The notes under the pieces are model-generated. The model was not told the origin of the DNA. It worked only from the letters and a program-made list of their open reading frames with translations, and did not search any database. Both the position numbers and the translations under genes were made by a program. This document shows, in pieces, positions 1,172 to 58,149 of a DNA stretch of 64,000 bases (the stretch's first letter is position 1; every line of letters starts with the position of its first letter). The DNA is from Camelus ferus. Lineage: Eukaryota. Location: assembly GCF_009834535.1 (NCBI RefSeq), contig NC_045696.1, forward strand, positions 50,904,001-50,968,000. The letters are read 5' to 3'.

Positions 1172-1315
1172 CTCCTTCATGATAGACAATCTCCTTTTCT
1201 CAAGATTAGAAATTTCTGGTTTCTGCTTCTTCCATTTTCTCTTCAAAGCTTTTTCTTGGAGCTCCCAGTGTACTAATGCTCTATTCTTCGATTTGTGTAT
1301 TTCATGACGACGTAT
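1172..1315 (-). CDS. SPICE1: SPICE1 third coding exon (144 bp): [48 protein letters not shown]
   Basis: Minus-strand translation matches the remembered SPICE1/CCDC52 N-terminus. Acceptor tatag|ATA, donor GAG|gtaatg, phase 0-0. Confidence 0.95.
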
Positions 1316-1705
1316 CTATATAGAAGAAAAAAATTTACAAGAATATTTCAGAGACAAAGAACTTGCCTATTCAGATGATAGGACCATCTAATGTAGTCTA
1401 TCTTTGAAAATTTTTTCTAGTCCAACATATGTATATTTATATATATTCACAGCCATTTTCACAATCTTCTAAATTTTCAAAAATGATTTACAAAAAGAAG
1501 TATCTAAAACTAGTAGACCTAGCTAAAAGACAAAATGAAAAGAATGTTAATTTCTACTTCTTTTGTACAAGCCTATCCAATAAAGCAGTCTTTTTCAAAC
1601 TGCAGTTGGAGACTTAGTTAATGAGTGGTAAAATAAACTAGTGGATCAAATATTTATAAAATAAAACAAAATATAAAACAGCAAATATTAAGAATACATT
1701 GCACA

Positions 1706-1813
1706 GAAGAATATGAAAAGTAATATACGTATGTTCATGTATGACTGAAACATTGTGCTATACACCAGAAATTGATATAACATTGTAAATTGGCTATATT
1801 TCAATTTAAGGAA
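1706..1813 (+). mobile_element. Short 5'-truncated L1 3' end (artiodactyl-type)
   Basis: TATGACTGAAACATTGTGCTATACACCAGAAATTGATATAACATTG is homologous to the element at 55685-55930. Degenerate TSD AGAATACATTGCACA (1691-1705) / AGGACACACTGCACA (1814-1828). Confidence 0.7.
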
Positions 1814-2949
1814 AGGACACACTGCACATAATGAAAGTTGAAAATTGTTTTGTTAAACTTTTCAGTTACATATGTGTGTACATGTACAATTACACACATA
1901 CAACTGACTTGAGTATAACATAAAAGGCACAAAACCCACTGAGTCATCTTTGGCAAAGCCACACCCATTCCATGATATTCACATCACCACCAAGAACTAA
2001 CAGTGCAGTGTTTCTATAGCCCTGCAATGGCTGCACGTGGAAGTGGGTCACTGGAGACACAGGACTCCAAGGAAGTGGAATTCCTGAAGCAGAAGCTGAG
2101 ATATGAGCCACAGCTTAAGAGTTAGAGGGGAGAAATTTGCTAAGGTTGTTAAGGAATAAAAGCAGATATTGGTTTTACAAGCACTCCGGCATTCAGAACT
2201 ATAAATATGAACAAAACCTGTATGTCACCTGATAAAATGTATTGCTGAGTTTGCATCATGTAAATAAGAAATCAGTCCATTAAGAGACTAACAACCAAAT
2301 ACTATGTAAGGATTCTAATTCACAAAAACAAATGAAGATGACATTTTTGAGACTATCAGGGATATATGAATATGGACTGGAAATTAGGTAATACCAAAAA
2401 TTAATGTTACTTTTGTCAGGTATGATAATGGCATTGTGATTATATATAAGAAAATGTCTATTTTTTATAATGCAAACTGAATATGTAGGCACAAAATGAC
2501 ATGTTCTCTGGGCTTTGCTTTAAAATGCTACAGTGAAAAAGGTATGATAAATGAAACAATTATGGCAATATTTTCATAACTTTTACATCCAAGTGAACAG
2601 TACATAGGAGTTCTTTACACTTTTAGTCTCTACTTTCATGTGAGTTTGAAATTTTTCATAATAAAAAAAATTTTAAGTCAGTTGGACATCATTATTATCC
2701 TCAATAAACATTTAATGAGTACCTACTAGGATTACTATTCCTAGATCCACAAAGACATATAAGATATGGCCTCTATCCCTCCAAAGCATTAATAATCTGC
2801 CCAGGGAGATTGGACATATGCATATAAAGATAAATGACATGCATTAGAGGGCATATGCTCAATGCCTTATGTTAGTAGTTAAGTATAAGGACAGTTCAGA
2901 GGAGATAGCAACTGTTGGGCAGCTTCAAAAAATAGGACTTCAAACTTAC

Positions 2950-4290
2950 TGTAATACTCAAGAGAGTATGGTACTGGCAGAAGGACAGACATATAGATCA
3001 GAAGAATAGAAATGTAAGTCCAAATTAGCCCTCATATTTACAGACAACTGATCTTCAACAAGGGTGCCAAGATAATTCAATGGGGAAAGAACAGTCTTTT
3101 TAATAAAAGGTGCTTAGACAACTGGATATTCATTTGTAAAAGAATGAAGTTGGACCCCTTCCTCACACCATACACAAAAATAACTCAAACTGGATGAAAG
3201 ACCTAAACATAAGAGCTAAAGTTTTAAAACTCCTAGAAGAAAACATAGAAGTAATTTTTGAACCTTGCTTAGACAATGGTTTCTTACATATGACACTAAA
3301 ACCACAAGTAAGAAAAGAAAAATTACATAAATTAGACTTCACCAAAATTTAAAACTTTTATGTTTCAAAGGATACCACCAAGAAAGCAAAAAGACAACCA
3401 ACAGAATGGAAGATAATATTTGCAAATCACGTATCTGATAAGAAACTTGTATCCAGAGTATATAAAGAACTCCTACTACTCAACAATAAAAACATAAATA
3501 ATCCAATTTTTAAAAAAGTTTTTTGCATTTCTCTTTTCATCAAGTCCAGTTCATTGTAGTCACATCTTTCCTCTGGTAATTTTTAAATAACTAAGGGATT
3601 CGAACAAACATTTCTCCAAAGAAGATACAACAAATGGCCAAAAAGCATACGAAAAGATACTCAACATCATTAGTCATTAGGGAAATGCAAATCAAAACCA
3701 CAATGAAATTCTACTTTATACCCTCTAGGAGAACTAAAACCAAAAAGATGACAATGATAAATGTTCACAAGGGGTATGGAAAAACGAATCCTCATACATG
3801 CTGGTGAGAATGTAAATGGTGCAGCCGCATTAGAAAACCCTTTGGCAGTTCCTTAGAAAGTTAAATATAGAGATAGCATATGACTCAGCGGTCATACTTT
3901 CATGTATATACCCAAGAGAACTGAGCGTATGTTCACACAAAAACCTGTACACAAATATTCAGAGCAGCATTATTCATAACAGTCAAAAATTAGAAACAAC
4001 CCAAATATCCAACAACTGATGAATGGATAAATAAAATATAGTATATCCATACAATGGAATAATATTTGGCAATAATAAGGATGAAGTATTGATACATGCA
4101 GGGAGGCATAAAGAGTGACTGTTAATGGGAAAAGGATTACTTCTGGGAGGGTGATAAAAATGTTATAAAATTACAAAGTGATGATGGTTGCATAACTGTG
4201 AATATACTAAAAGGCAATAAACTGTACACTTTAAAAGTGTAGATTTTATGGTATGTAAATTATATCCTAATAAAGCTGTTTAAAAATAAA
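2950..4290 (+). mobile_element. Old L1 (L1M-type) ORF2 3' region and 3' UTR, degenerate
   Basis: Typical L1 motifs (GGTGCCAAGATAATTCAATGGGGAAAGAACAGTC, GAAATGCAAATCAAAACCACAATG), ending AATAAAGCTGTTTAAAAA. Confidence 0.85.
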
Positions 4291-4796
4291 CTTATAGTAG
4301 AAACTTAAAAAAAAAAAAGTAAGACTTGAACTAGTATAAGGAAGCAAAGTTAAGACTCGGACAGGTGGAGAAGAAGGTAGGGAAACTTCCAAGTAAAGAG
4401 AATAGCATGAACTGGGGCACAAATGTGGAAATATACATGGCACAGTTTGAGAAAAAAATTACTATGTATATTTGTGTAGAGAAATAATAGTAAATAATGC
4501 CAGTGATATCTACAGCTAGAAAAAGACCATAGATGTGTAGAGGACAATACAAGACTAGAGAGATTTGAACAGTAAACAGATCCTATCTAATAAAATTCTA
4601 ATACATGCCAATTGATATCCCTAGGTAAAATAAGGAAGTCCAGGACACATGCTTTTTGATTTTATATAGACATAAACAAGATTAAAATTAACTGAATAAC
4701 TTCCAAGAAGTGCTTCTGGTTTTTATTCTGAAGGTCAGAAACCAAGTATCAAATAAAACATGTAACAAATCCCGCAACTTTCCATAGTAAACATAC

Positions 4797-4844
4797 CAGA
4801 TCTTCAGGAGTTGCCCGATGAACTGTAAGATCAGTCATAGTATT
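4797..4844 (-). CDS. SPICE1: SPICE1 second coding exon (48 bp): NTMTDLTVHRATPEDL
   Basis: Acceptor ttttttgcag|AAT, donor CTG|gtatgt. Peptide continues the SPICE1 sequence in phase 0 between the flanking exons. Confidence 0.95.
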
Positions 4845-5374
4845 CTGCAAAAAAAGATGAACTTTCTTTAAAAAGTAAAAAAGGTTTCTTATAAAATATT
4901 AGTATGTGCTGGATTTTAATGGCTGAAAATGGATTCAAAATCCTGAGACCAAAACATCTTTCTTTCGAGGAAGCAATCAATATTCTCAATTTAAATATTA
5001 AAATGGATTGATTACTTTTAGCTGTCTTGTAGAAAATAACAGACTATTTTTAGGTGTCTTACAGAAATTAAGCACTAAACTCACCAAGCAGGCACACATT
5101 ATACTAAAACAGTGAATAAAACAGGATAGTATATAATTCAAAATGAGTTAGTTTAATTGAAGTTATAGTTTTCAAATGATAGTCCATGGAATGAGGCAAC
5201 TTTAAAGATTCCTAAAAGATAAACTGTGATCACTTTAGAGAGGTTCAGTTTGTGTCCATGCAAACACCTTAAGCACAGAACCTATCATAATAAGAGATGA
5301 ATTTTGAGGGTATTGTGTAATTTCATAAAATGTGAAAATAGTTACTCAAGTAAAAAGGCACTAAACCAACATGG

Positions 5375-5490
5375 CAGGGCTTCCACACTGCACAACTCCA
5401 GAAGGTACCATTAATATCCTCGGTCATGTAAATAGTCCCCCCTTGGAGTCGTGCAGGCTGTGCACTGCACGACTCCAAGTAGCAGCCCCA
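5375..5490. mobile_element. MER91-like hAT MITE remnant containing a perfect 15-bp hairpin
   Basis: CAGGGC...CTGCACAACTCC...GGAGTCGTGCAG...GCAGCCC layout resembles MER91 from memory. Inverted repeat at 5442-5456 / 5465-5479 is seen directly. Confidence 0.6.
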
Positions 5491-5852
5491 CAATTTGGTC
5501 CTTCCCAAAATGACTCCAGCCACTTTGTTATACAGATTTGGTAAGGCAGGGAACAAAAGAATGTAGAGTTTTAATTCTAAGAGAAATATAGAGACCTGAG
5601 TCTAGTGAAATCATTTCTGATGTGTTCAAAGACTTAACTTTTTGGCCACAGCTTAAATTTAGCTCAAGGATTTTATATACTAAAATCATATTCCTTTCAT
5701 ATTGATTTAGAAAAGTACAAGATACAACTATAAGATCACAAGAATTGTTTTTAATAATCATAATAAGAATTCAGGCATATAAGTGATATGCTTGGAATTA
5801 GTTCTCATGGAAGAAAATATGATTTCATTAATACCACTATTGCTTAAAACTA

Positions 5853-6263
5853 CAGTTGACTCTTGAATAACATAGGTTTGAACTACACAGGTCCATTTAT
5901 GTGTAGATTATTAGATAAATACATACTACAGTGCTACACAATCCACAGTTGGTTGAATCCACAGATGCAGAACTAGAGATATGGAGGACTGACCGTAAAG
6001 TTATCAGTGGATTTTTTCTGTTTGGTTGGTTTTTGGGTTTTTTTTTTTCTTCGGGGGGACGGGAATAATTAGGTTTATTTATTTATTTATTTATTTATTA
6101 TTGTTATTTTTTATTTAACTAATGTATTGGGGATTGAATCCATGACCTCATGCAGGCTAGGCATGTGCTCTACCACTGAGCTATACCCTACCCCCCATAA
6201 GTGGATTTTTGACTGTGTGGAGGATCGGCACCTCTAATCGCCGTGTTGTTCAAGAGTCAACTG
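5853..6263. mobile_element. TcMar-Tigger MITE (MER8/Tigger2-like), interrupted by a SINE
   Basis: TIRs CAGTTGACTCTTGAATAACA and TGTTGTTCAAGAGTCAACTG, flanked by TA on both sides. Confidence 0.85.
6017..6199 (-). mobile_element. tRNA-derived SINE, Vic-1-like
   Basis: Reverse strand reads GGGGGGTAGGGTATAGCTCAGTGGTAGAGCACATGC...AAACCTAATTA then an A-rich tail. TSD AGTGGATTTTT at 6006-6016 and 6200-6210. Confidence 0.9.
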
Positions 6264-7454
6264 TATTTCCTTCTGAAATTGCCTTTAAATCTAATTTATA
6301 AGCCATTTCAGTAAATATCTCGGTATCAAAGAAGTATTATTCAGTTGATCTCTCCTCCCTCATTTACCATTCACTCCAAATGACTTATAACTACTTTCAC
6401 GTTCAGTCTACCTTCAAAAAACAAAGTTTTTTCCAGCACTGGAAATACAAAAAGTAAGGGAGGAAGGTTCTGAATGAAATTTCAAGTGATGGCTTTCAAT
6501 TACACTTTGAGCAACAGCAGCACATCAAAATAAATACTGAACTTCCCAAAGTAACCACTCTGAAGGAGACAACTTATGTTATCATGTGCATTCTTTCCCC
6601 TTTTAATCAGTTTCATTACCTAAGAATCACATCTTTATACTATTTTATAGCCAATCAAATGATAACAATGCAATCTAAACACAGAGAAATCCCCCTGTTC
6701 TACTTTCGAAAGCTGTAAGTTTGCCCAGGATATCTTGGCCACAACCCAGAAGGTTCCAAGTCCAAAAGGATCCCTAAGATCGAAACTGGTCCCTGACCCA
6801 TTACTCTGCACAAGAGAAAGGAAAGTTACTAAAGGTCTCATGGTCCAAACCAAAGGACCAGGCTGCAAAAGATAAAAATCCCCTTGGTAATACCAAGTGG
6901 TATTCAGGGTAGGAGCCAGGGATCATGTCTCAGGTACTTGAGACTTGTCTTCTATCTGATGAGAACCTTTGTACTGAAACTGACCACCCTCACTCTGGGG
7001 GTGAGCAACAAATACTTCAAGAGGTAAGAGAGCAAGGATCATCCACTTTTTCAGTCAAACATGCCACTCACATGATTATGGTATCACAGGTTGCTATGGG
7101 CAAATCTAAAAAATGTACCCAAAAATTTCAGACTGGGTTAGCTAGAGTTGCCTTAAAGCAGTGAGTTCTCAAAGTGGAAATAGGGGGACTTTTTAAAAAC
7201 ATGCTCTCCACCCCCTTAAGATCTCAGTTCTTCAAAGGAGACAGAGGCTATAGCCTCAATATGTATATTCTAAAAAACTCCCCAGAGTCTACTCTTCCCT
7301 CCAAGACCTTGGATATGCCATGCCCAGAAACCCATCCCACCCTACCGCACGTGGGAGCCCCATTCAGAGCACCATCCTGAGTGACTAGGGTCACGTCATC
7401 ACATCTGTTCCTTCCGTGTAAGGTTACACTGTTCATCATCCCACCTAGACTTAC

Positions 7455-7553
7455 ATCCCATTCTTGCTTCACTGACGTTTTCTTCTTCTTTACTTTCAGT
7501 GTTTTCCTTCCTCCTCCCCGCGGACCATAACGGTTCACTCTGACAAATGACAT
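7455..7553 (-). CDS. SPICE1: SPICE1 first coding exon (99 bp): [33 protein letters not shown]
   Basis: Matches the remembered spindle and centriole associated protein 1 N-terminus. Acceptor ttcctag|ATG, donor GAT|gtaagt. Confidence 0.96.
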
Positions 7554-11649: not shown

Positions 11650-13520
11650 CTTCCAAATTGCTAAAATTATTGGTCCCTTATTTCTCAGGCCCCTTCCATC
11701 TCTAGAGACTCCACTCCTAGAGGCTCTCCACTCCCTTGGCTTCCATGACACTATTTCTCCTGGTTTCTCTCCTATTCTTTTCCCCTTCTCTTTGCAGGCT
11801 CTGTTGGTCCCTCCTCACATACTATACAATCAAGATCTTCACTCGGTTCTATCCCAGTCCACTTTTCTTTCTATTGGACACCCTCTCTCTTCATCCAATA
11901 ATTGTTTTTGAGAGACTGCCACATGCCAGGCACTGGCCAGGCACTGGCCAGGCACTGGAGATTCAATAGTAAACAAGTCTAATATGGTGTCAGCTCTCAT
12001 GGAACTTACTTTCTAGATCACCAAGGGGGAGTTTACATCTTCCCTTAGTGAACTCACCTACTCCCTTGAGCAAAGCTATCAATGCACTGGGCACACAAAC
12101 ACACTGTGAAAATGAGTCCCAAATCAAGGATTCACACCTTTCCTCAAAACACCTAATGCTCATTTCCAACTGGCTTCTGTGCACATCCCCCAAATATCTC
12201 AAATACAGTATGACCAATATATAGCTTAGTACCCACACCCCCTCTCCACCAATCTCTAGTTCTTAATGTATAATCTGCTTGCTCAGTAGATGTCTGCTGA
12301 ATGACACTGAACTACAGAGTTACCATCCTTCTAGTTGCTCCAGTTTAAAATCTTAGCATCACCTTTTCTTCTTTCCTGTGAATCTATTCATTCTTTCCCT
12401 GAAATATCTCTCTCATGTCTCTTCTTCATCTCTACCGAGAATGTTTTTGTCCAAGTTCTCTTTATTTCTCCTAATTGATCTTCCTTTCACTCATTTCCTC
12501 ACCCACTTCATCATCGGTCTATTATTTCAACAGGTATTTTGAAAGCACCTGCCAAGAGCCAGGCACCAGATACAGCAAGAAAGTAGAATACTCTGCACCC
12601 TCACAGAGCTTAGAGTCTGTCCCACCACAGTTAAATGAGTAATTGCAATAAAAGGCTAATGTAGGAAGTAAATTCAGGGTCACAGAAATACCTAACTTAC
12701 TCTACACAGTGAGAAAATGCCACCTCCTCCCTCTAATTCCCCTAAAAATGTTTAAGCTGAACTATGAATAAAAGAATTTGGGGAAAGCAGCTCCAGGTAG
12801 GGGGAAAGGTATTTACAAAGGGTTTGAGAGGTTCAGTTTGACTAACAAAGATTTGAGAGGATAAGAGGCTAGAAAGAGGATAAAAAAGAAAGGCAGAGGC
12901 CAGATCATGGCCTTGTGAGCCACAGCAATTTGAACACTATCCTAAAGACCTATAGCAAGCCACTGAGGGACTTTACCCAAGGTCAGTTAGGATGTGATTT
13001 AGCAAATCCACTCTGGCTAATGAAAAGTTGATCACAGGGAAACAAGACATCTTTCCAAACACTGTCCCGTCAGTCAATCCTACCCAGACATATGGATAGA
13101 GTATAACTCTCAACACTTTCCTTCATTCCTCAAAAGATTTTAATGGCTCTCCCCTGCAGAGAGGAATGCAACTCGGCTAGGCACTCAGGCCCTCTCCTCC
13201 CTCCTTGTAACCCAGCTGCCCTTTCTTTCTAGCCTTTTCTCCTCTTATATCTCCCACACATCCTAAAACACAGCTCTCGCCCTCACATACAGTTCCAGCC
13301 ATTCCTTACGCTCTGCTTGGAACACCTCTCAAATTTCCACTCCCTTCACGGAGTTAACTCCCACTCACTCCTCAAAATTCACTCAAGCGGCCCCTCCTGA
13401 TAAATCCTTTCCTAACCATCAAACCGACTCAAATGACCCTCCCTGTCCCCAAGTACCTGGGTAGTTTGTCTCTCCTGCTGGACTGGAAATTCCTTGAAAG
13501 CTACACGAGGATACCCCCAT
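11650..13520. mobile_element. Fragmented L2 remnants in both orientations
   Basis: L2 motifs such as CTTGGCTTCCATGACACTATTTCTCCTGGTTTCTC and TGCCAGGCACTG...CTCTCATGGAACTTACTTTCTAG. Confidence 0.6.
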
Positions 13521-13539
13521 TTCTAGCTCTGTGCAGAAG

Positions 13540-14080
13540 CTCCCAAAAGCGCTGCGCACGATGCTCCTAGAGGAAGCGAGCTAGGCACAAACACACGCGC
13601 AGACACGCATCCTGACACGCACAGACACTCGCAAAGCGGAGTCGCGAGTGCACTTTCTGTAGTGAGGCTCCTCAACCCAGGCGCCTGGATCCCTAGGAAA
13701 CAGAAAGGAAGACGCCACCACCGTTCTCCCCGCCCTGTAGCCTCGGTCCCTTAGACTCGGCGGGTCTGCGGGTGCAGGCCTCCGTCCCGTAACCACAACC
13801 TGCCTTGCTGCTTCCCGGCTGCTGCGTCCACCACGACTAAAACCTCCGGCTTCAGAACCGCCCGGCCCGCCACAAGTCAAGGCAGCCTCCGCTTCCGGGA
13901 TGTTGCCTAGGTTACCGGAGCCCCGCCCCATTCCCGCGCGTATATCCGCTGAGGCCAGTGCGCAGGCGCCTCCCAAAGTCTGGTTTGGCCTGTGGCCTAA
14001 GGGATTAAAAGGCTTTGATGTATCCGGCTTTGATATGTAATGCTTTGGCCTGTCTGTGCCGTCGGCAGGGCTCCGGGCAA
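13540..14080 (-). promoter_or_regulatory. SPICE1: SPICE1 CpG-island promoter with RFX X-box, ETS, GC box, E2F-like and NRF1-like motifs
   Basis: CpG-dense island. CTTCCGG 13892-13898; GTTGCCTAGGTTAC 13902-13915; CCCCGCCC 13921-13928; TTCCCGC 13931-13937; TGCGCAGGCGC 13959-13969. Confidence 0.85.
13800..13900 (-). other. SPICE1: Probable SPICE1 non-coding exon 1; 5' end approximate
   Basis: Lies in the CpG island upstream of the ATG exon. Candidate donor GGCAG|gttgtg at 13800/13799. A 5' exon is required because the ATG exon begins at a splice acceptor. Confidence 0.6.
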
Positions 14081-26300: not shown

Positions 26301-27759
26301 CTAGAGAGTGCTTGAACTGGCCAGGTCAGCTAATCTCAAGGGACATCACAAATTTCAAGTTTATTAAATGTTTTTAAATCATAAAAAGAGGCATAGACAT
26401 TTTAAATCCAGCCATTTAACATCATTTAAATTCTGGATGAAATTATTATGTTTCTCAAAAACAGCTCTATTTTAAACTTTACCCCTAGACTCTTCCTTGA
26501 ATTATTAATTTTGTCCTTATGCCCATATATTTTCCAAAAACATTGTTTAAAAAGTGGGGGGGGAAAAGTTAAGTCTTAATAAAAGTCCTAATAGGAAGTC
26601 ATCTGATTCAATCTTCCATCTGCATCATTTTCTGATGGCACAGTTATAAAACTTTATACCAAATGCATTGCTCTTACTTTTGGGTGTTTTAATAAATTGT
26701 AAGAATTCAATGAGGTTTCAAAAAGAGAGAGAGAAATCCCTTCCTTTGAATGGTAAATGCTATGATTTTAATCTGTAATCGTAACTCTTTGAACGTGATC
26801 TTTTTCTTCTTTGTGGCTTCTTTTTTAATGCTCCCTCAGGTTAAACGCAGTTATATTCTTTTCTAGTTTACAAATAACTTGAAGCTGAAATACAACAGTG
26901 AGTCCCCTTCTACATCTGAATTGTGATTGTTTGATTTTGTTTTGCAAGGACTTCCGAGGAATCCTCTTCTCAATCTATCCTTTACCTGCCCCTTTTAACT
27001 GTTTACATTGAACCCCCTAATTTTTGCCTGGAGGTACTTCTTTTTGATTTTGGGTTCCTCTCTTTTGAAAGACAATATAGAATCCCGGGGATTCTGCCAA
27101 ATCTAAGAAGTCATTGCAGAAGTCAAGAGGACAAGAAGCTGGGGCAGAAAGAAATGCCCTCTGCACAAATCCAGTTGCTCTGAGTCGTCTTTGACAACTT
27201 CCGGGACCAGACTTAAGGTGGCATTCGAACTGTTTTCATTACTATGTCTATATAGTTTTACATGACTGTAATATTTACATATGTATACGTATGGCAAGTG
27301 GACAGAGAAAGCAATGACGTGAGGCTCCTTGAGAATAGGTGGTGATAAGGAAATAAAACAGGTGTTTGGAGAGGGGTTCTGTAAGAGAAGGGAGAACTGA
27401 GAGTTAATACCCATCATTCAGACAGGCAGTTCTCTACAGGTAGCTGACTGGAAATGTGAACTCGTGCACCCTCTTTGGGGACAGGCTGTGTTGCTTTCTA
27501 TTTCTTTGCTTGCAGCCAGGTGCACATTTATTTGAAACGGAATGAATTTTCTGCTCAATGGCCGGTCAGGTTAACGCTTCAAGACTAGTGGATATTTCTT
27601 TTTAATGTCTTCAATGCTATTTTTTCCTTTTTTTTTTTCTTTCTTTCTTTCTTTTTGAGATTGAGGAGGAAGAGCTCGGTTTAAATTCTGGTTGGGTAAG
27701 TGGGGGATTCTCAGAAATGAGAAAGGGGGAAGGAAACGGACTTAAAAGCCAGAGAGCAA

Positions 27760-28560
27760 AGCACCAGCCCTCGGCCCCCACATCCTGCGCACCCCCTACC
27801 TCCGCCCCGTGACCTCCCGAGGAGACCCCAGGCGGCTGCATCAATATTTGATCAGCTTTTCACCAGCGCGTTGCCAGCACTCGTCGGCGGGGCTTGCCAG
27901 GCATCGCCCGCGCTACGCTGAAGCCCGCGCCGGCGCCCGAAGGGGCTTCGGAAGGACCGGCTCTGCGCTCGCCCTCTCCGCAGGACGGCTCGGCTTCGCG
28001 GCCGGGGCGCGGCGCCCACCATGCGGGGCTGCACGCGGCTCGCGCTGCTCTGCGCGCTGCCCTGGCTCCTGCGGGCGGCCGCGCCGGGGCGCACGGCACA
28101 ACCCCTAGCGCAGCGCCGCGACCCCCGCGACCCCGCCAGGGGCGCCGACTTCGATCGCATCTACAGCGGGGTGGTGAAGCCTCAGCACCGAGAACATCTA
28201 CTCCTTCAACTACACCAGCCAGCCCGGCCAGGTAAGGCACTCGCTCCCCTCGCTCGACTCCCAAGAACTTGCCAGATGTCAGATCCTGTTGCTGCTCTAG
28301 GTCCCCTGGGAATCGACCGCGGGAGACCTCAGGGGCAGGGGACCCTCGTTCCCTTTCTCCTTCAAGGCAATCACTGCCTTGCTCGAGCTGCTGCATCCTC
28401 TGCCACCGGCCTCAGGGACAACTCCGCCTCCTCTCGCGCCTCCCCTGGCCTGGTCGCTGGCGTTTCTGGGCTTTGCAAAGGAGCTGGTTTCCCCGCACTG
28501 TCTGCGGGTCCTGGCCCCCTGCTGGCCTTTCTCTAGGAAGGTCACGATTTCTAGGGCTGC
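27760..28560 (+). promoter_or_regulatory. SIDT1: SIDT1 CpG island spanning promoter, 5' UTR and exon 1
   Basis: Very high GC and CpG density, GC box CCTCCGCCCC near 27800, Kozak context GCCCACCATGC at 28021. Confidence 0.85.
28021..28231 (+). CDS. SIDT1: SIDT1 coding exon 1 (signal peptide and start of the luminal domain), with a +1 frameshift near 28177 as sequenced
   Basis: MRGCTRLALLCALPWLLRAAAPG...ARGADFDRIYSGVV, then SLSTENIYSFNYTSQPGQ only in the shifted frame. Donor CAG|gtaagg at 28231/28232. Length 211 = 3n+1, whereas exon 2 starts in phase 0. Confidence 0.93.
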
Positions 28561-31500
28561 GGAGGGAAAGGACCGCACCTCTGTTCCTAATCCCCTGCGA
28601 GGAAGGAAGCTCATCCCATTTGGATGAGTCTGCCAGACCCTTCTATTTCATAGAGCATGGGGAGGGAGAGCTGCTCAGAATCTAAAATGGGAACGTGTGA
28701 GAATGGACGCAAGCTGCAGAACCTATGTGCATGCGAGTCACTTCCTGCGTTTCTGTACCCTTGTCACACGTATGTGCTTCAGAGAAGCTAGAGGACCCGG
28801 CCAAAGATATCGGGACTGCAGCCATCAGCCGATCTATCCAGGTTTTGATTTCATGTCAGAAGGGATAGTTGTCTTAAAGTTCTAGACCCATTTATGATGA
28901 AAAATTGAGGTTAGATAAGGGGAGGAAATGACTGTTCTAGCAACTATTCCTTTGACACATATACTGATTGTATAAGGTAAGAAAACGCATAGTTAGCTTT
29001 TCCCTTCTAATACGGTGTCCTCTGAGGCACAGAGAAAACTCCTCCGTGTACTTGCCTCTAGACCTTCTTCCCAAATAAATGTATGTAAATGTATATGTAT
29101 ACATATGAATGAATGTATATGCATCCCTTTCTATGCCAGTATTCCCTACTCCCTCAGGAAATTCCAGAACCAGATGATTAGGATACCAAGATATGCTTCT
29201 CTCTGTGACTCTTACTTAGGAGCAGAACTCAGAAACCTGGGCGCTTGGGTAGTACTGAGCCAGAGCGACCAATGTGCCCATCACCACTCCCAGACATTTA
29301 CCGAGTGTGTGTACTGAGCAAGTGCCCCATCTCCAGTGTGGCACCAAATCCTAAGCTTGGTCCTCACCCAGTCCTGTCCCCTGCTGACCTTCAGCGCACG
29401 TCCTGAAGTGAGCAGAGTGGCTGTGTGCGGAGTCATTCCATTGAGGATAAGTGGGAGGGGCAGTTTTTACTCCCCAGGTTCCTTGTAACCCACCTCTTCC
29501 AGTCCAGTGTGCAGAAATTGGACCAGCTGCCATTGTACATGAGGTGTGTTCCCAGCCTTCTGACTGGCTCAGAACAAATGAAACCTCATGGTCTCTGGGT
29601 GTCTGTCACTTTTTCCCTAAACCACTGGTAAGGAAACTCAAATGATGTGTGCAAACTAAAACCTGGCATCAGGCTTCAGTGTTTCTTGCACTTCTACTCG
29701 GAGATAGAGTGACCACTTTTTAACTTTTGCTTGAGCCTTTCCGCTGGTAGTATTGGGTGAGCTCCTCTTCCACAGCACAGGTTGCACTGTTTGCAGTTGG
29801 GGTCACCTGATTGACCTTCCTAGAAAACCAGGAGATACTGAGGACGGGGCAGAGTCCTGTTCATCTCTGTACCTTAGTACCTAGCACAGTGCTAGGCACA
29901 TAACAAGTTTACTGATGTTTTTGAAAAAAATGAATAAATAGGGGAAGAAAGATTTAAGGAATCTTTAAGCTAAAACTAAATAAAATATATACTTTTTAGT
30001 AGGTTAAACGTGAGATCATTTCATATAAAAACAAATTTTTAAAATTGTTCTGAGATTATACCCTTTCCATTTTGCCTGTATGTATGTATAAATGTTCTTT
30101 ATTTTATGAAACAGTGGTGATAATTCATTTTTTAAATATCTTTGCATAATACAGGAGAAAGCTACCAGCCCCTAAAATTTTACTAGTCTGAGAAATACAG
30201 TTGGGAACCATGGGACTGGCAGATAACTCGAGTTTTTTAATTATTTTAATGCCAGTATGCAATAATATGAACCAGATGTCCTCAAATCTTACAGCTTTCG
30301 GAGACCTCTCTTTAATACGCAAGTAAGACAGTGGAACCCTCAGTCCACTTATTCTGGAATATTGTCCTCCTCTCCCTCCAGCCCTGTATTCCTGTCCTTT
30401 CTCCAGAGACAGCATTTTCTGAGCTAGCCATCCAAACCATTACTCTGTTTCTCTTGATGGCCTCCTCTCTTCTTGGTCTCTTTTGCTTGTGTTGGATACC
30501 AGCACTCCTTCCAATACCATGAACACAATGCTGTTGGATACAGCAGAATTTTACTGAAGGTGTGCAATACCATAAGGGAATTGCAGAACAGCACAGGACA
30601 GTAACAGATTTAATCAGAAGCCTAAGCAACACTGTCCTAACAGTTTCCAGCTATTCCCCCACCAGGAGGAATTTCAAAATGGCAGCACATCTTCTTGGCC
30701 ACCCCTCACCCCATATACTAGCCTCTCAGTCTCTAAATTTTTGTTACTCTCTCACATCAAGCAGTTTTGCCTCCATTACCAACCCCAAACTCACTAAAGG
30801 GCTCTGCTAAATAAAGATCTATGACCCCAAGAGCAGAAGCTTGGCGATGACCTTTTTCCTTCAACCTGAACAAAGTCTTGGCCCGGGCTCCCTCCCCTGA
30901 ACGGGTCATTTCTCATCTACCTTTCTTCAGTGCAACAAAGAATTTGGCTTAGAAAAAAAAAGGCTAATTTTTTTTAGTCTTAATCATTTTTTTCTTTCCT
31001 CTTCAAGCCATTAATATGTTTGCCGTTATTTTTCCTTCAGCTGGGAGGAGAAAGGCTATACTAAGTTTAGTTTCAGGGAAGAGAGGAAACTGCTGTGGGA
31101 GAATTTGCTCCTAATCTTTCCTGTCAGCCACTGCGTTACCCAAGCGTGTCATGCTAATTAACCAAGCTCGGCACCAGGAAAAGTCTCACATGCCTTCTAG
31201 GCAGAGAATAATGTAAATATGAAGTTGCCATTAAAAAAAATATATCACTGAAAGAATGGAGTGACTGGTTTAAAGAAGGATAATGAAAATAATGGTGGAA
31301 GGTGCAGGTTAGGCAAGATCGTGGTTCATTTCAGTACCCTGAAGGGGTAGTGTCTGGAGACTCCTTTTAAGGGGTGCAGGGTTCATTATATCAAACAGGA
31401 TGTTCCATAACTGCAGGGCTAGGGCCAAACTAGAAGGAAATCACCTTGTTGAGAAAGTCACCAGGGATATGTTTGACTGGGACAGAGGGCACAAAAGCAG

Positions 31501-48511: not shown

Positions 48512-48560
<49 letters not shown>
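48512..48560. repeat. (AGAT)12 microsatellite
   Basis: Perfect tetranucleotide array read directly. Confidence 0.97.
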
Positions 48561-48562
<2 letters not shown>

Positions 48563-49761
48563 CATTTTACTTCTTTACAGACTTTATGTAAATGGGATCA
48601 TGCAGTGTATCCTTCAGCAACCTGGTCTTTCTTTTTTGGGGGGGGTAGATAATTAGTCTTTCTCTTAATTTATCTTCTTCAGGGTTATCCATGCTGATCC
48701 ATATTCTAGTTCATTCATTTCATTCTTGTTCATGACTCCTTGTGCGTATGTAAGAGTTTTTCTGGTGTGTAAACTTAGGAGTGGAGATGCTGGAATGTAT
48801 TGTGAACTCCTCTTCAGCTTTAATAGATATTGCCAACTTGCTCTCTGAAATGGTTGTACCAAGTAATGTTTTCGTAAGCAGTATGCTAGAGTCCCTAGTT
48901 CTCAGCATCCTTGCCAATGCGGTGTTGTCACACTTTGGAGGCTTTACCTTTCTGGTGAGTGTGAACTGTTAACATCTTTTCGCTTGTTCTTTGGTCATTC
49001 TTCTCTTCAGTTGCCGTTTATATCCTTTACTTGATTTTCTATTGTGGTGTTGTGTTTTTCTACGAGTTTTAAGGATTCTTTCTATATTAAAGATACTGAT
49101 ATTTTGTCTGTTAGATATGTACAAATAACATCTCCTGTTCTGTCGCTTGTCTCTCCCTTTGCTCATGTTGTTTACATAGCTTCTTGATTTCACAGTAGAA
49201 TAGCAGGAGAAGCCTATATCCCCAGTGGTGTTCAGTGGAGTCGGGAATTCAAATAGTGATAATAACATGATCTGACCAAGCACTGTGCGGAGACTGGGAT
49301 GTAAGAAGCTTGGGGTGTAGTCATGGTTCTTCAATAGCTGAGCATCCTTGAGGAAGTCACGTCACCTCTATGTCTCGGCTCCTCTTCTATAAATGGAACC
49401 TTTGGACTAGATGATCTCCGAGTCCCTTTCCAGATGTACGGTCCTCTAATACTGTGAGTCAGGGTCATGTGCACCAGGCAGGCAACAGCAGGACCTACAT
49501 GAACAAGCCCAGCTTCACTATAACTTGGGAAGTAACTGACCAGCCTATGTGGTTTTTCCCGTCCTCTGGGTGCCCACAGCACCTGCTCACATTGCTACTA
49601 TATCATCACATTATGCTTTTGGGGATAACATCATCTGTTATCCAGATCATGAGCTCCTGAAGGACAGGGTTGCCTTTAAGATACCCTTAGTGCCTCCCCA
49701 AACTCCTGACTCAGTGAATGTTTGATGAATGATGGAGGGAGAATGGGAGGGTAAGAAGAAA

Positions 49762-49912
49762 GAATGGAAAGAGGGAAGGAAGGGAAGAAGGAAAGAAGGA
49801 AGGAAGGAAGGAGGGAAGAAAGGAAGGAAGGAAGGAGGGAAGAAAGGAAGGAAGGAAGAGAGAGGGAGAGAGGAAGAAGGGAAGGAGGGAGGAAAAAGGG
49901 AAGGACAGAAGG
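49762..49912. repeat. Polypurine (GGAA/GAGG)-rich low-complexity tract
   Basis: Nearly pure A/G run adjoining an L2-type tail (TGAATGTTTGATGAATGA). Confidence 0.92.
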
Positions 49913-51090
49913 ACCAAAGAACCTAAACACCTCCAAGATGTACACCCAGTGAACATAACACAGTTACTGAAACAGTTACCAAGTTATATTTGTGTTTGTA
50001 ACAAATTTGTTTTACAATGTTTGTTGGATGAAGGAAGAGAACCATTAGCAAATACTATTGTAGCTATTTCACAAATGGAGTCAGTTTTTCAAGATCACAC
50101 TGGAAAACAATGGTATGGCTAATAATGGAAACCAATAATCTCTGATTCTTAATCTGATGTTCCAACTAACAAAGCCTACAGTCTCATTATTTTAGCAAAA
50201 CCAAACTCAATTTTGAAGCAAACTCATTTTCATCCTCTTTATGCAACAGAACTATATTACTTATAATTTTGAACTTTTCCCTACTGACATGTTCTAAAAG
50301 ATTAAAAAGGGACTGTCTAAGCTTTAAGACCTTTCATAATTCTGTTCTATATAATATTAGAGATGGGAGCACTTCAATAATTCTTCTGTCTTAGTTATAA
50401 TGCAATTCCCTGCTTGTAGTAAACATAGGGAAAAAACAACATATATATATAATAAAATTGCTCTTATTGTCATGACAACAGGAAAAAGCAACAGGAGGGG
50501 AAAAATCTTGGCTCTTAAGAATGGTCTGTTACAAGGTGTCAGAGTCCATTATGCATTGTCAATACCTTCATTTAGTTTTGCCTTCATATGGTTTACTTCA
50601 GGGCTGTAAATGTAATCCAACTTTCTCAGTGGCATTTAGCCTCTGGAAAAGCAAAGCAAAATTTGAACAGGACTTTTTATCCTTTCCTGGGGTGGTGCAT
50701 TATCTGCTCATTTTGAAAAACTGCCCAGTGTTTTCTATCTCCTACTCTAATGTATTTTTTTAAATTATTATGTGAGTATCTCTGAGTTTTAAAATTATAA
50801 TTAGTAAGATCATCATTAAATAATAAAAAAGTAAGTGGATTACAAGAGCCAGACCAGGAATAATAGGGTGTGGAGATAAAGAGCAGACTGCAGTAACCAT
50901 GACAGTGACACATCTGCTCTGCTCTTCTCCCAGAACACCTACCTCCTGCTGGCCCAGTTTCAGCCCCACCAGCCCCACCAGCCTCTAGACGTGCTAGTGA
51001 TGTTGGTGATCTCATGGTTGTGCATCTCGGAATAATGGGCCCTTGGTGAGTTGCTGACAAATGGGGCCATCCGCTCGATGGTTTCTTGGA

Positions 51091-56853: not shown

Positions 56854-56975
56854 GTGAACGCTGTGCGGGTGTATGTGAACAGCTCCTCGGAGAACCTCGA
56901 CTACCCGGTCCTGGTCGTGGTTCGCCAGCAGAAAGGGGTGCTGTCCTGGCAGGTTCCTCTGCTTTTCCAAGGACT
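56854..56975 (+). CDS. SIDT1: SIDT1 coding exon 2 (122 bp): VNAVRVYVNSSSENLDYPVLVVVRQQKGVLSWQVPLLFQG(L)
   Basis: Acceptor ctgcag|GTG, donor CT|gtaagt, phase 0-2. Peptide matches remembered SIDT1. Confidence 0.96.
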
Positions 56976-57978: not shown

Positions 57979-58149
57979 ATACCAGAGGAGCTACAGCTAC
58001 CAGGAAGTGAGCCGCACCTTGTGTCCCTCGGAAGCAACCAACGAGACAGGACCTCTGGAGCAACTGATCTTTGTGGATGTAGCATCCATGGCGCCCCTGG
58101 GTGCCCACTACAAACTGCTGGTTACCAGGATCAAGCACTTCCAGCTGCA
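57979..58149 (+). CDS. SIDT1: SIDT1 coding exon 3 (171 bp): YQRSYSYQEVSRTLCPSEATNETGPLEQLIFVDVASMAPLGAHYKLLVTRIKHFQL
   Basis: Acceptor ctgcag|A, donor CA|gtaagc, phase 2-2. Intact; matches remembered SIDT1. Confidence 0.96.

Follow-up and report, generated by a model that had tools for sequence, protein, structure and literature searches.

Has Camelus ferus lost SIDT1, or does its genome assembly carry a false frameshift in an otherwise sound gene? SIDT1 has a reported role in the absorption of dietary microRNA (PMC8026584) and has also been linked to the endolysosomal release of double-stranded RNA (dsRNA) to RIG-I-like receptors and to lipid hydrolysis, its transport mechanism being described in a 2025 review as unsettled and disputed (PMC12684396). 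If the lesion seen in its first exon were real, it would provide a natural SIDT1 knockout in a large herbivorous mammal, in which the dietary uptake of microRNA and the dsRNA roles of the protein could be tested, and it would bear on the genetic load of the population concerned. If it were an error, gene-loss screens and variant calls based on this assembly would count SIDT1 as lost when it is not. We analysed a stretch of 64,000 nucleotides around the locus (here, the window), to which all coordinates refer. The frameshift is present in the assembly file; it is probably not a feature of the animal.

The coding part of SIDT1 exon 1 lies on the plus strand at 28021..28231 and is 211 nt long here, whereas the 70 codons of its relatives imply 210. 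Read from the ATG at 28021, the frame gives the SIDT1 N terminus through codon 52 and diverges thereafter; from 28178, one base further, the conserved SIDT1 continuation resumes. The frame that is correct downstream is shut immediately before this continuation by a TGA (28175..28177, plus strand), with another stop further upstream. When one base is stepped over, the 70 exon 1 residues align over their full length with human SIDT1 (PDB, E 1.1e-29), a score that, together with the exact identity to a camel protein described below, excludes a chance match. The initial annotation had described this break and put the skipped base at 28177-28179. The one-base shift stands, and its position can be refined: with Ser53 in all five camelid records examined, the surplus base is either A of the AA at 28177..28178 (plus strand), which lies between codons 52 and 53; the sequences of relatives call for only one A there. 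The alternative of an Asn codon at the break, which had also been entertained, fits the human protein but not the camelids (Ser53 in 5/5).

This is the only lesion counted in SIDT1 exons 1 to 3. Exon 1 ends at a GTAAGG splice donor (28232..28237), and exons 2 (56854..56975, 122 nt) and 3 (57979..58149, 171 nt), both also on the plus strand, are intact and flanked by AG and GT, which makes every one of the five internal splice ends of the three exons canonical. The window holds no N bases, and tblastn with the SIDT1 protein gave no match beyond residue 168 within its 64 kb; exons 4 and later, which encode the SID-1 transmembrane domain (PF13965) and the zinc site, fall beyond it. Judged by exons 1 to 3, the gene is an ordinary orthologue of SIDT1. 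Much of the initial description is borne out by this structure: a 211-nt exon with a single, uncompensated lesion followed by two intact exons, a TGA that closes the downstream-correct frame and no rescue from upstream (the 33 open codons preceding 28021 contain no ATG). The scan for further lesions that had been proposed found none in exons 2 and 3 within the window. The next in-frame ATG after the break lies in exon 3 at 58088, as had also been stated, and corresponds to residue 148. The Met matching this ATG is the start of predicted isoforms without the N-terminal leader in sheep, goat, deer, tiger, and pangolin (examples among these annotation predictions are P0167, P0168, P0207, P0240, and P0391).

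How the site reads in relatives was assessed from a protein search, using the best 120 of 284 matches, among which nearly all the named ones were mammalian SIDT1. The listed members of the protein clusters behind these matches included five camelid records from three species: C. bactrianus (P0161, P0159), C. dromedarius (P0157, P0153), and V. pacos (P0156). All five continue through the site with Ser53 and without an X, and the names shown carry no low-quality label. The comparison with other camelids recommended at the outset, made here at the protein level, therefore gave an intact exon in 5/5 records. The C. bactrianus SIDT1 isoform X1 (XP_074219778.1; P0161, 823 aa) has the same 167/167 residues over exons 1 to 3 as the window (52/52 upstream of the break, 18/18 downstream of it in exon 1, and 97/97 across exons 2 and 3), that is, no amino acid change in a protein-level comparison, but its codons 52 and 53 are unbroken where the window has one base more. 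This protein bears the Pfam domain SID-1_RNA_chan (PF13965) at residues 180 to 823. Because both flanks of the break and exons 2 and 3 match P0161 perfectly, the gene shows no further sign of decay. The dromedary (XP_031311456.1; P0157) and alpaca (XP_031536974.2; P0156) proteins are both intact, with the same exon 1 residue length and Ser53; the window differs from the former at residue 154 and from the latter at residues 5, 98, and 117. These comparisons assign the window to a two-humped camel. Human SIDT1 (PDB 8jul, 8jun, 8kcw, and others), to which the exon 1 product aligns across all 70 residues, differs in having four extra residues before the ectodomain and Asn where the camel has Ser53.

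The same picture was obtained across a larger set of 430 database proteins, which are isoforms and relatives and hence not independent tests. Anchors flanking the site were matched in 384 of them, all with an identical spacing of eight residues; one more, P0282, has the same spacing as judged by eye, and in the remaining 45/430, which comprise alternative starts, fragments, and open reading frames (ORFs) in another frame, the segment is missing from the frame in question. The junction between the correct and the shifted frame occurs in none of the 430. Six genomic ORFs from other mammals, which span the site in a different frame, lack the extra base, in agreement at the DNA level. A search with the shifted genomic frame returned seven matches, all at ≤66% identity, and is uninformative on either allele since the unshifted camel ORF was also missed. 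No Camelus ferus SIDT1 record was present among the best 120 of 284 matches or the best 120 of 1660, nor among the 15 of 48 members listed for the camelid cluster or the listed members of ten more clusters, an absence that means little.

Since the Bactrian, dromedary, and alpaca records carry an intact protein, an assembly error is a likelier reading of the extra A than gene loss, and we consider that it is very probably a consensus indel error. The probabilities expressed in words for this and the three other readings discussed below are judgements and were not computed. A single A would have been called twice in the first exon and left uncorrected; in the living animal, the coding exon would then be 210 nt long and undamaged, and the SIDT1 protein normal. 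The setting is consistent with such an event. Exon 1 has a GC content of 73% versus 39% for the whole window, and it lies with the SIDT1 promoter in a CpG island (27501..28500; two 500-nt bins with GC of 0.54 and 0.68 and observed/expected CpG of 0.93 and 0.82), as expected from the GC-rich island noted in the initial annotation. The extra base is a doubling of the neighboring A, so that both marks of an error-prone context, a GC-rich 5′ exon and a doubled neighboring base, are found at SIDT1 exon 1. Against this reading, the duplication of a neighboring base is also the commonest type of real 1-bp insertion.

The SPICE1 gene, the divergent (head-to-head) neighbor of SIDT1, served as an internal control without lesion. 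Its three coding exons in the window (7553-7455, 4844-4797, and 1315-1172, minus strand, within 1172..7553; 99, 48, and 144 nt) are intact and in phase with AG/GT ends, which also counts for an assembly error in SIDT1. In vertebrate assemblies, false indels that mimic gene loss have been reported from first coding exons rich in GC, an example being PCDH17 of the zebra finch (PMC9516821). Like camel SIDT1, the cases described there have a small insertion in such an exon. They differ in that they come from other vertebrates, in older assemblies built on Sanger and Illumina data, and were proven by reads and a second assembly, whereas the camel SIDT1 case rests on sequence comparison. For camel assemblies, moreover, uncorrected PacBio indels have been treated as a matter of quality (PMC7468183).

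The best surviving alternative to an assembly error is that the extra A is real and marks a null allele of recent origin, either confined to the sequenced animal or found at low frequency in its population; we regard this as quite improbable. The mRNA would then be read correctly for 52 residues and out of frame from there to a stop located past exon 3, and nonsense-mediated decay would be its probable fate. A single lesion with perfect flanks would also fit a very young allele. Sidt1-null mice reach adulthood and have been used as adults in feeding experiments (PMC8026584), and a true null would therefore probably be survivable. Set against this are the absence of the shifted junction from all 430 database proteins and the location of the base in a kind of setting where false indels are reported to gather (PMC9516821).

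Public sequencing runs bear on the same question. A run index was queried with the region 27700-29200 of the window, sampled as 168 words, 20 of the 24 rows being indexed. The highest share seen was 0.98 of the words, in 15 of the 20 indexed rows (contig sets from five studies, organism A). Nine of these 15 carry a flag as the potential origin of this DNA; excluding those, six rows from two studies remain. Of the 1471 31-mers, 30 would be missing from a sample that lacks the extra A, giving an expected share of 0.980, equivalent to 3.4 of the 168 words. The observed share of 0.98 corresponds to three or four words lost, at positions not localised to the extra A, and could also be obtained from one substitution elsewhere in the 1.5 kb or from sequence filtered by the tool; its agreement with the expected 0.980 is suggestive but indirect. 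A carrier otherwise identical to the assembly, whether heterozygous or homozygous, would be expected at a share of 1.00. No indexed row (0/20), including the nine possible-source rows, contains all words, which argues against a null allele private to the sequenced animal. The RNA rows (shares of 0.67, 0.54, 0.54, 0.24, and 0.08, together with four raw-read runs) were not counted as evidence. The shares of RNA runs X16-X18 (0.54 to 0.67) exceed the expectation for exon 1 alone, perhaps because these runs contain unspliced or upstream transcripts or carried-over DNA.

A further possibility, which we hold to be very improbable, is that SIDT1 was lost, or that a null allele became common, in a two-humped lineage (the wild camel) since its split from the domestic Bactrian. 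The compared proteins do not separate wild from domestic animals, the intact records being those of sister species, and no wild-camel SIDT1 protein was found among the matches and cluster members listed, both of which would be compatible with such a loss. However, a fixed allele predicts a share of 1.00 in resequenced animals of that lineage, of which there is none among the 20 indexed rows, and a lost gene would sit uneasily with the lack of a second lesion and of any amino acid change in 167 residues, although no such change would be expected after a recent loss. The features by which a unitary pseudogene is recognized point the same way. Exons 1 to 3 have neither several lesions nor decayed splice sites, and the lesion is not shared by relatives or individuals (5/5 camelid records intact; 0/20 rows at 1.00). 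The argument that intact exons 2 and 3 and their splice sites speak against old pseudogenisation, made when the break was first noticed, holds well, with canonical ends and 97/97 residues identical. Literature on SIDT1 in connection with pseudogenes or camels mentions no SIDT1 loss or camel allele in its titles and abstract openings, subscription papers and supplements aside.

We consider it unlikely that a natural SIDT1 null, postdating the split from the domestic Bactrian, is carried by wild two-humped camels as a whole or by a section of their small population. Of the two outcomes offered in the initial annotation, assembly error or recent null allele, the evidence favors the former (three camelid species intact, no row at 1.00), while the latter finds no support.

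The idea that the base is real but bypassed by the cell, either by a programmed +1 shift of the ribosome or by use of an in-frame splice donor shortly before the break, has a probability close to nil: GT dinucleotides at 28171 and 28174 would yield in-frame exons of 150 and 153 nt, but the shift is common to no relative examined, an internal-donor isoform is found in 0/430 proteins, and internal-donor splicing would delete the start of extracellular domain 1. Programmed frameshifts are normally conserved, and no conservation of this one was found among relatives. To our knowledge, the context of the SIDT1 break resembles none of the +1 sites of antizyme, Ty1, Ty3, or prfB. Rescue by an internal donor or by an upstream start was accordingly rejected, there being no such isoform among the 430 proteins and no ATG among the 33 codons that are open upstream. 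In a sequence with a single A, the GT at 28174 would read GTGAG, a better approximation to the donor consensus than the window offers.

In human SIDT1, residues 1 to 43 are disordered and are followed by extracellular domain 1, which carries glycans at Asn57 and Asn67 (PMC11137008). If the base were real, the SIDT1 product would thus be predicted to end early in this domain, after 52 residues. The shifted frame itself is free of stops across the rest of exon 1 (28178-28231) and exons 2 (56854-56975) and 3 (57979-58149), and the premature stop would therefore lie beyond the window. An equally open shifted frame arose in 469 of 5000 synonymous shuffles. This openness looks like a chance consequence of the small number of T-ending codons (12/114), and a hidden overlapping gene, considered as a candidate, was not supported, the openness being within chance (469/5000).

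The surroundings of the gene are otherwise unexceptional. On the SPICE1 side, the Pfam family SPICE (PF15678, E 6.9e-20) was recognized in the minus-strand exon ending at 1315, while no Pfam family was found for the exon at 7553-7455 taken alone. The placement of SPICE1 beside SIDT1 presumably matches the human gene order, and a CpG island bin at 13501-14000 is probably the SPICE1 promoter. SIDT1 intron 1 contains two tetranucleotide microsatellites, a perfect (AGAT) x12 array at 48512-48560 and a degenerate (GAAG) x39 array at 49755-49913.
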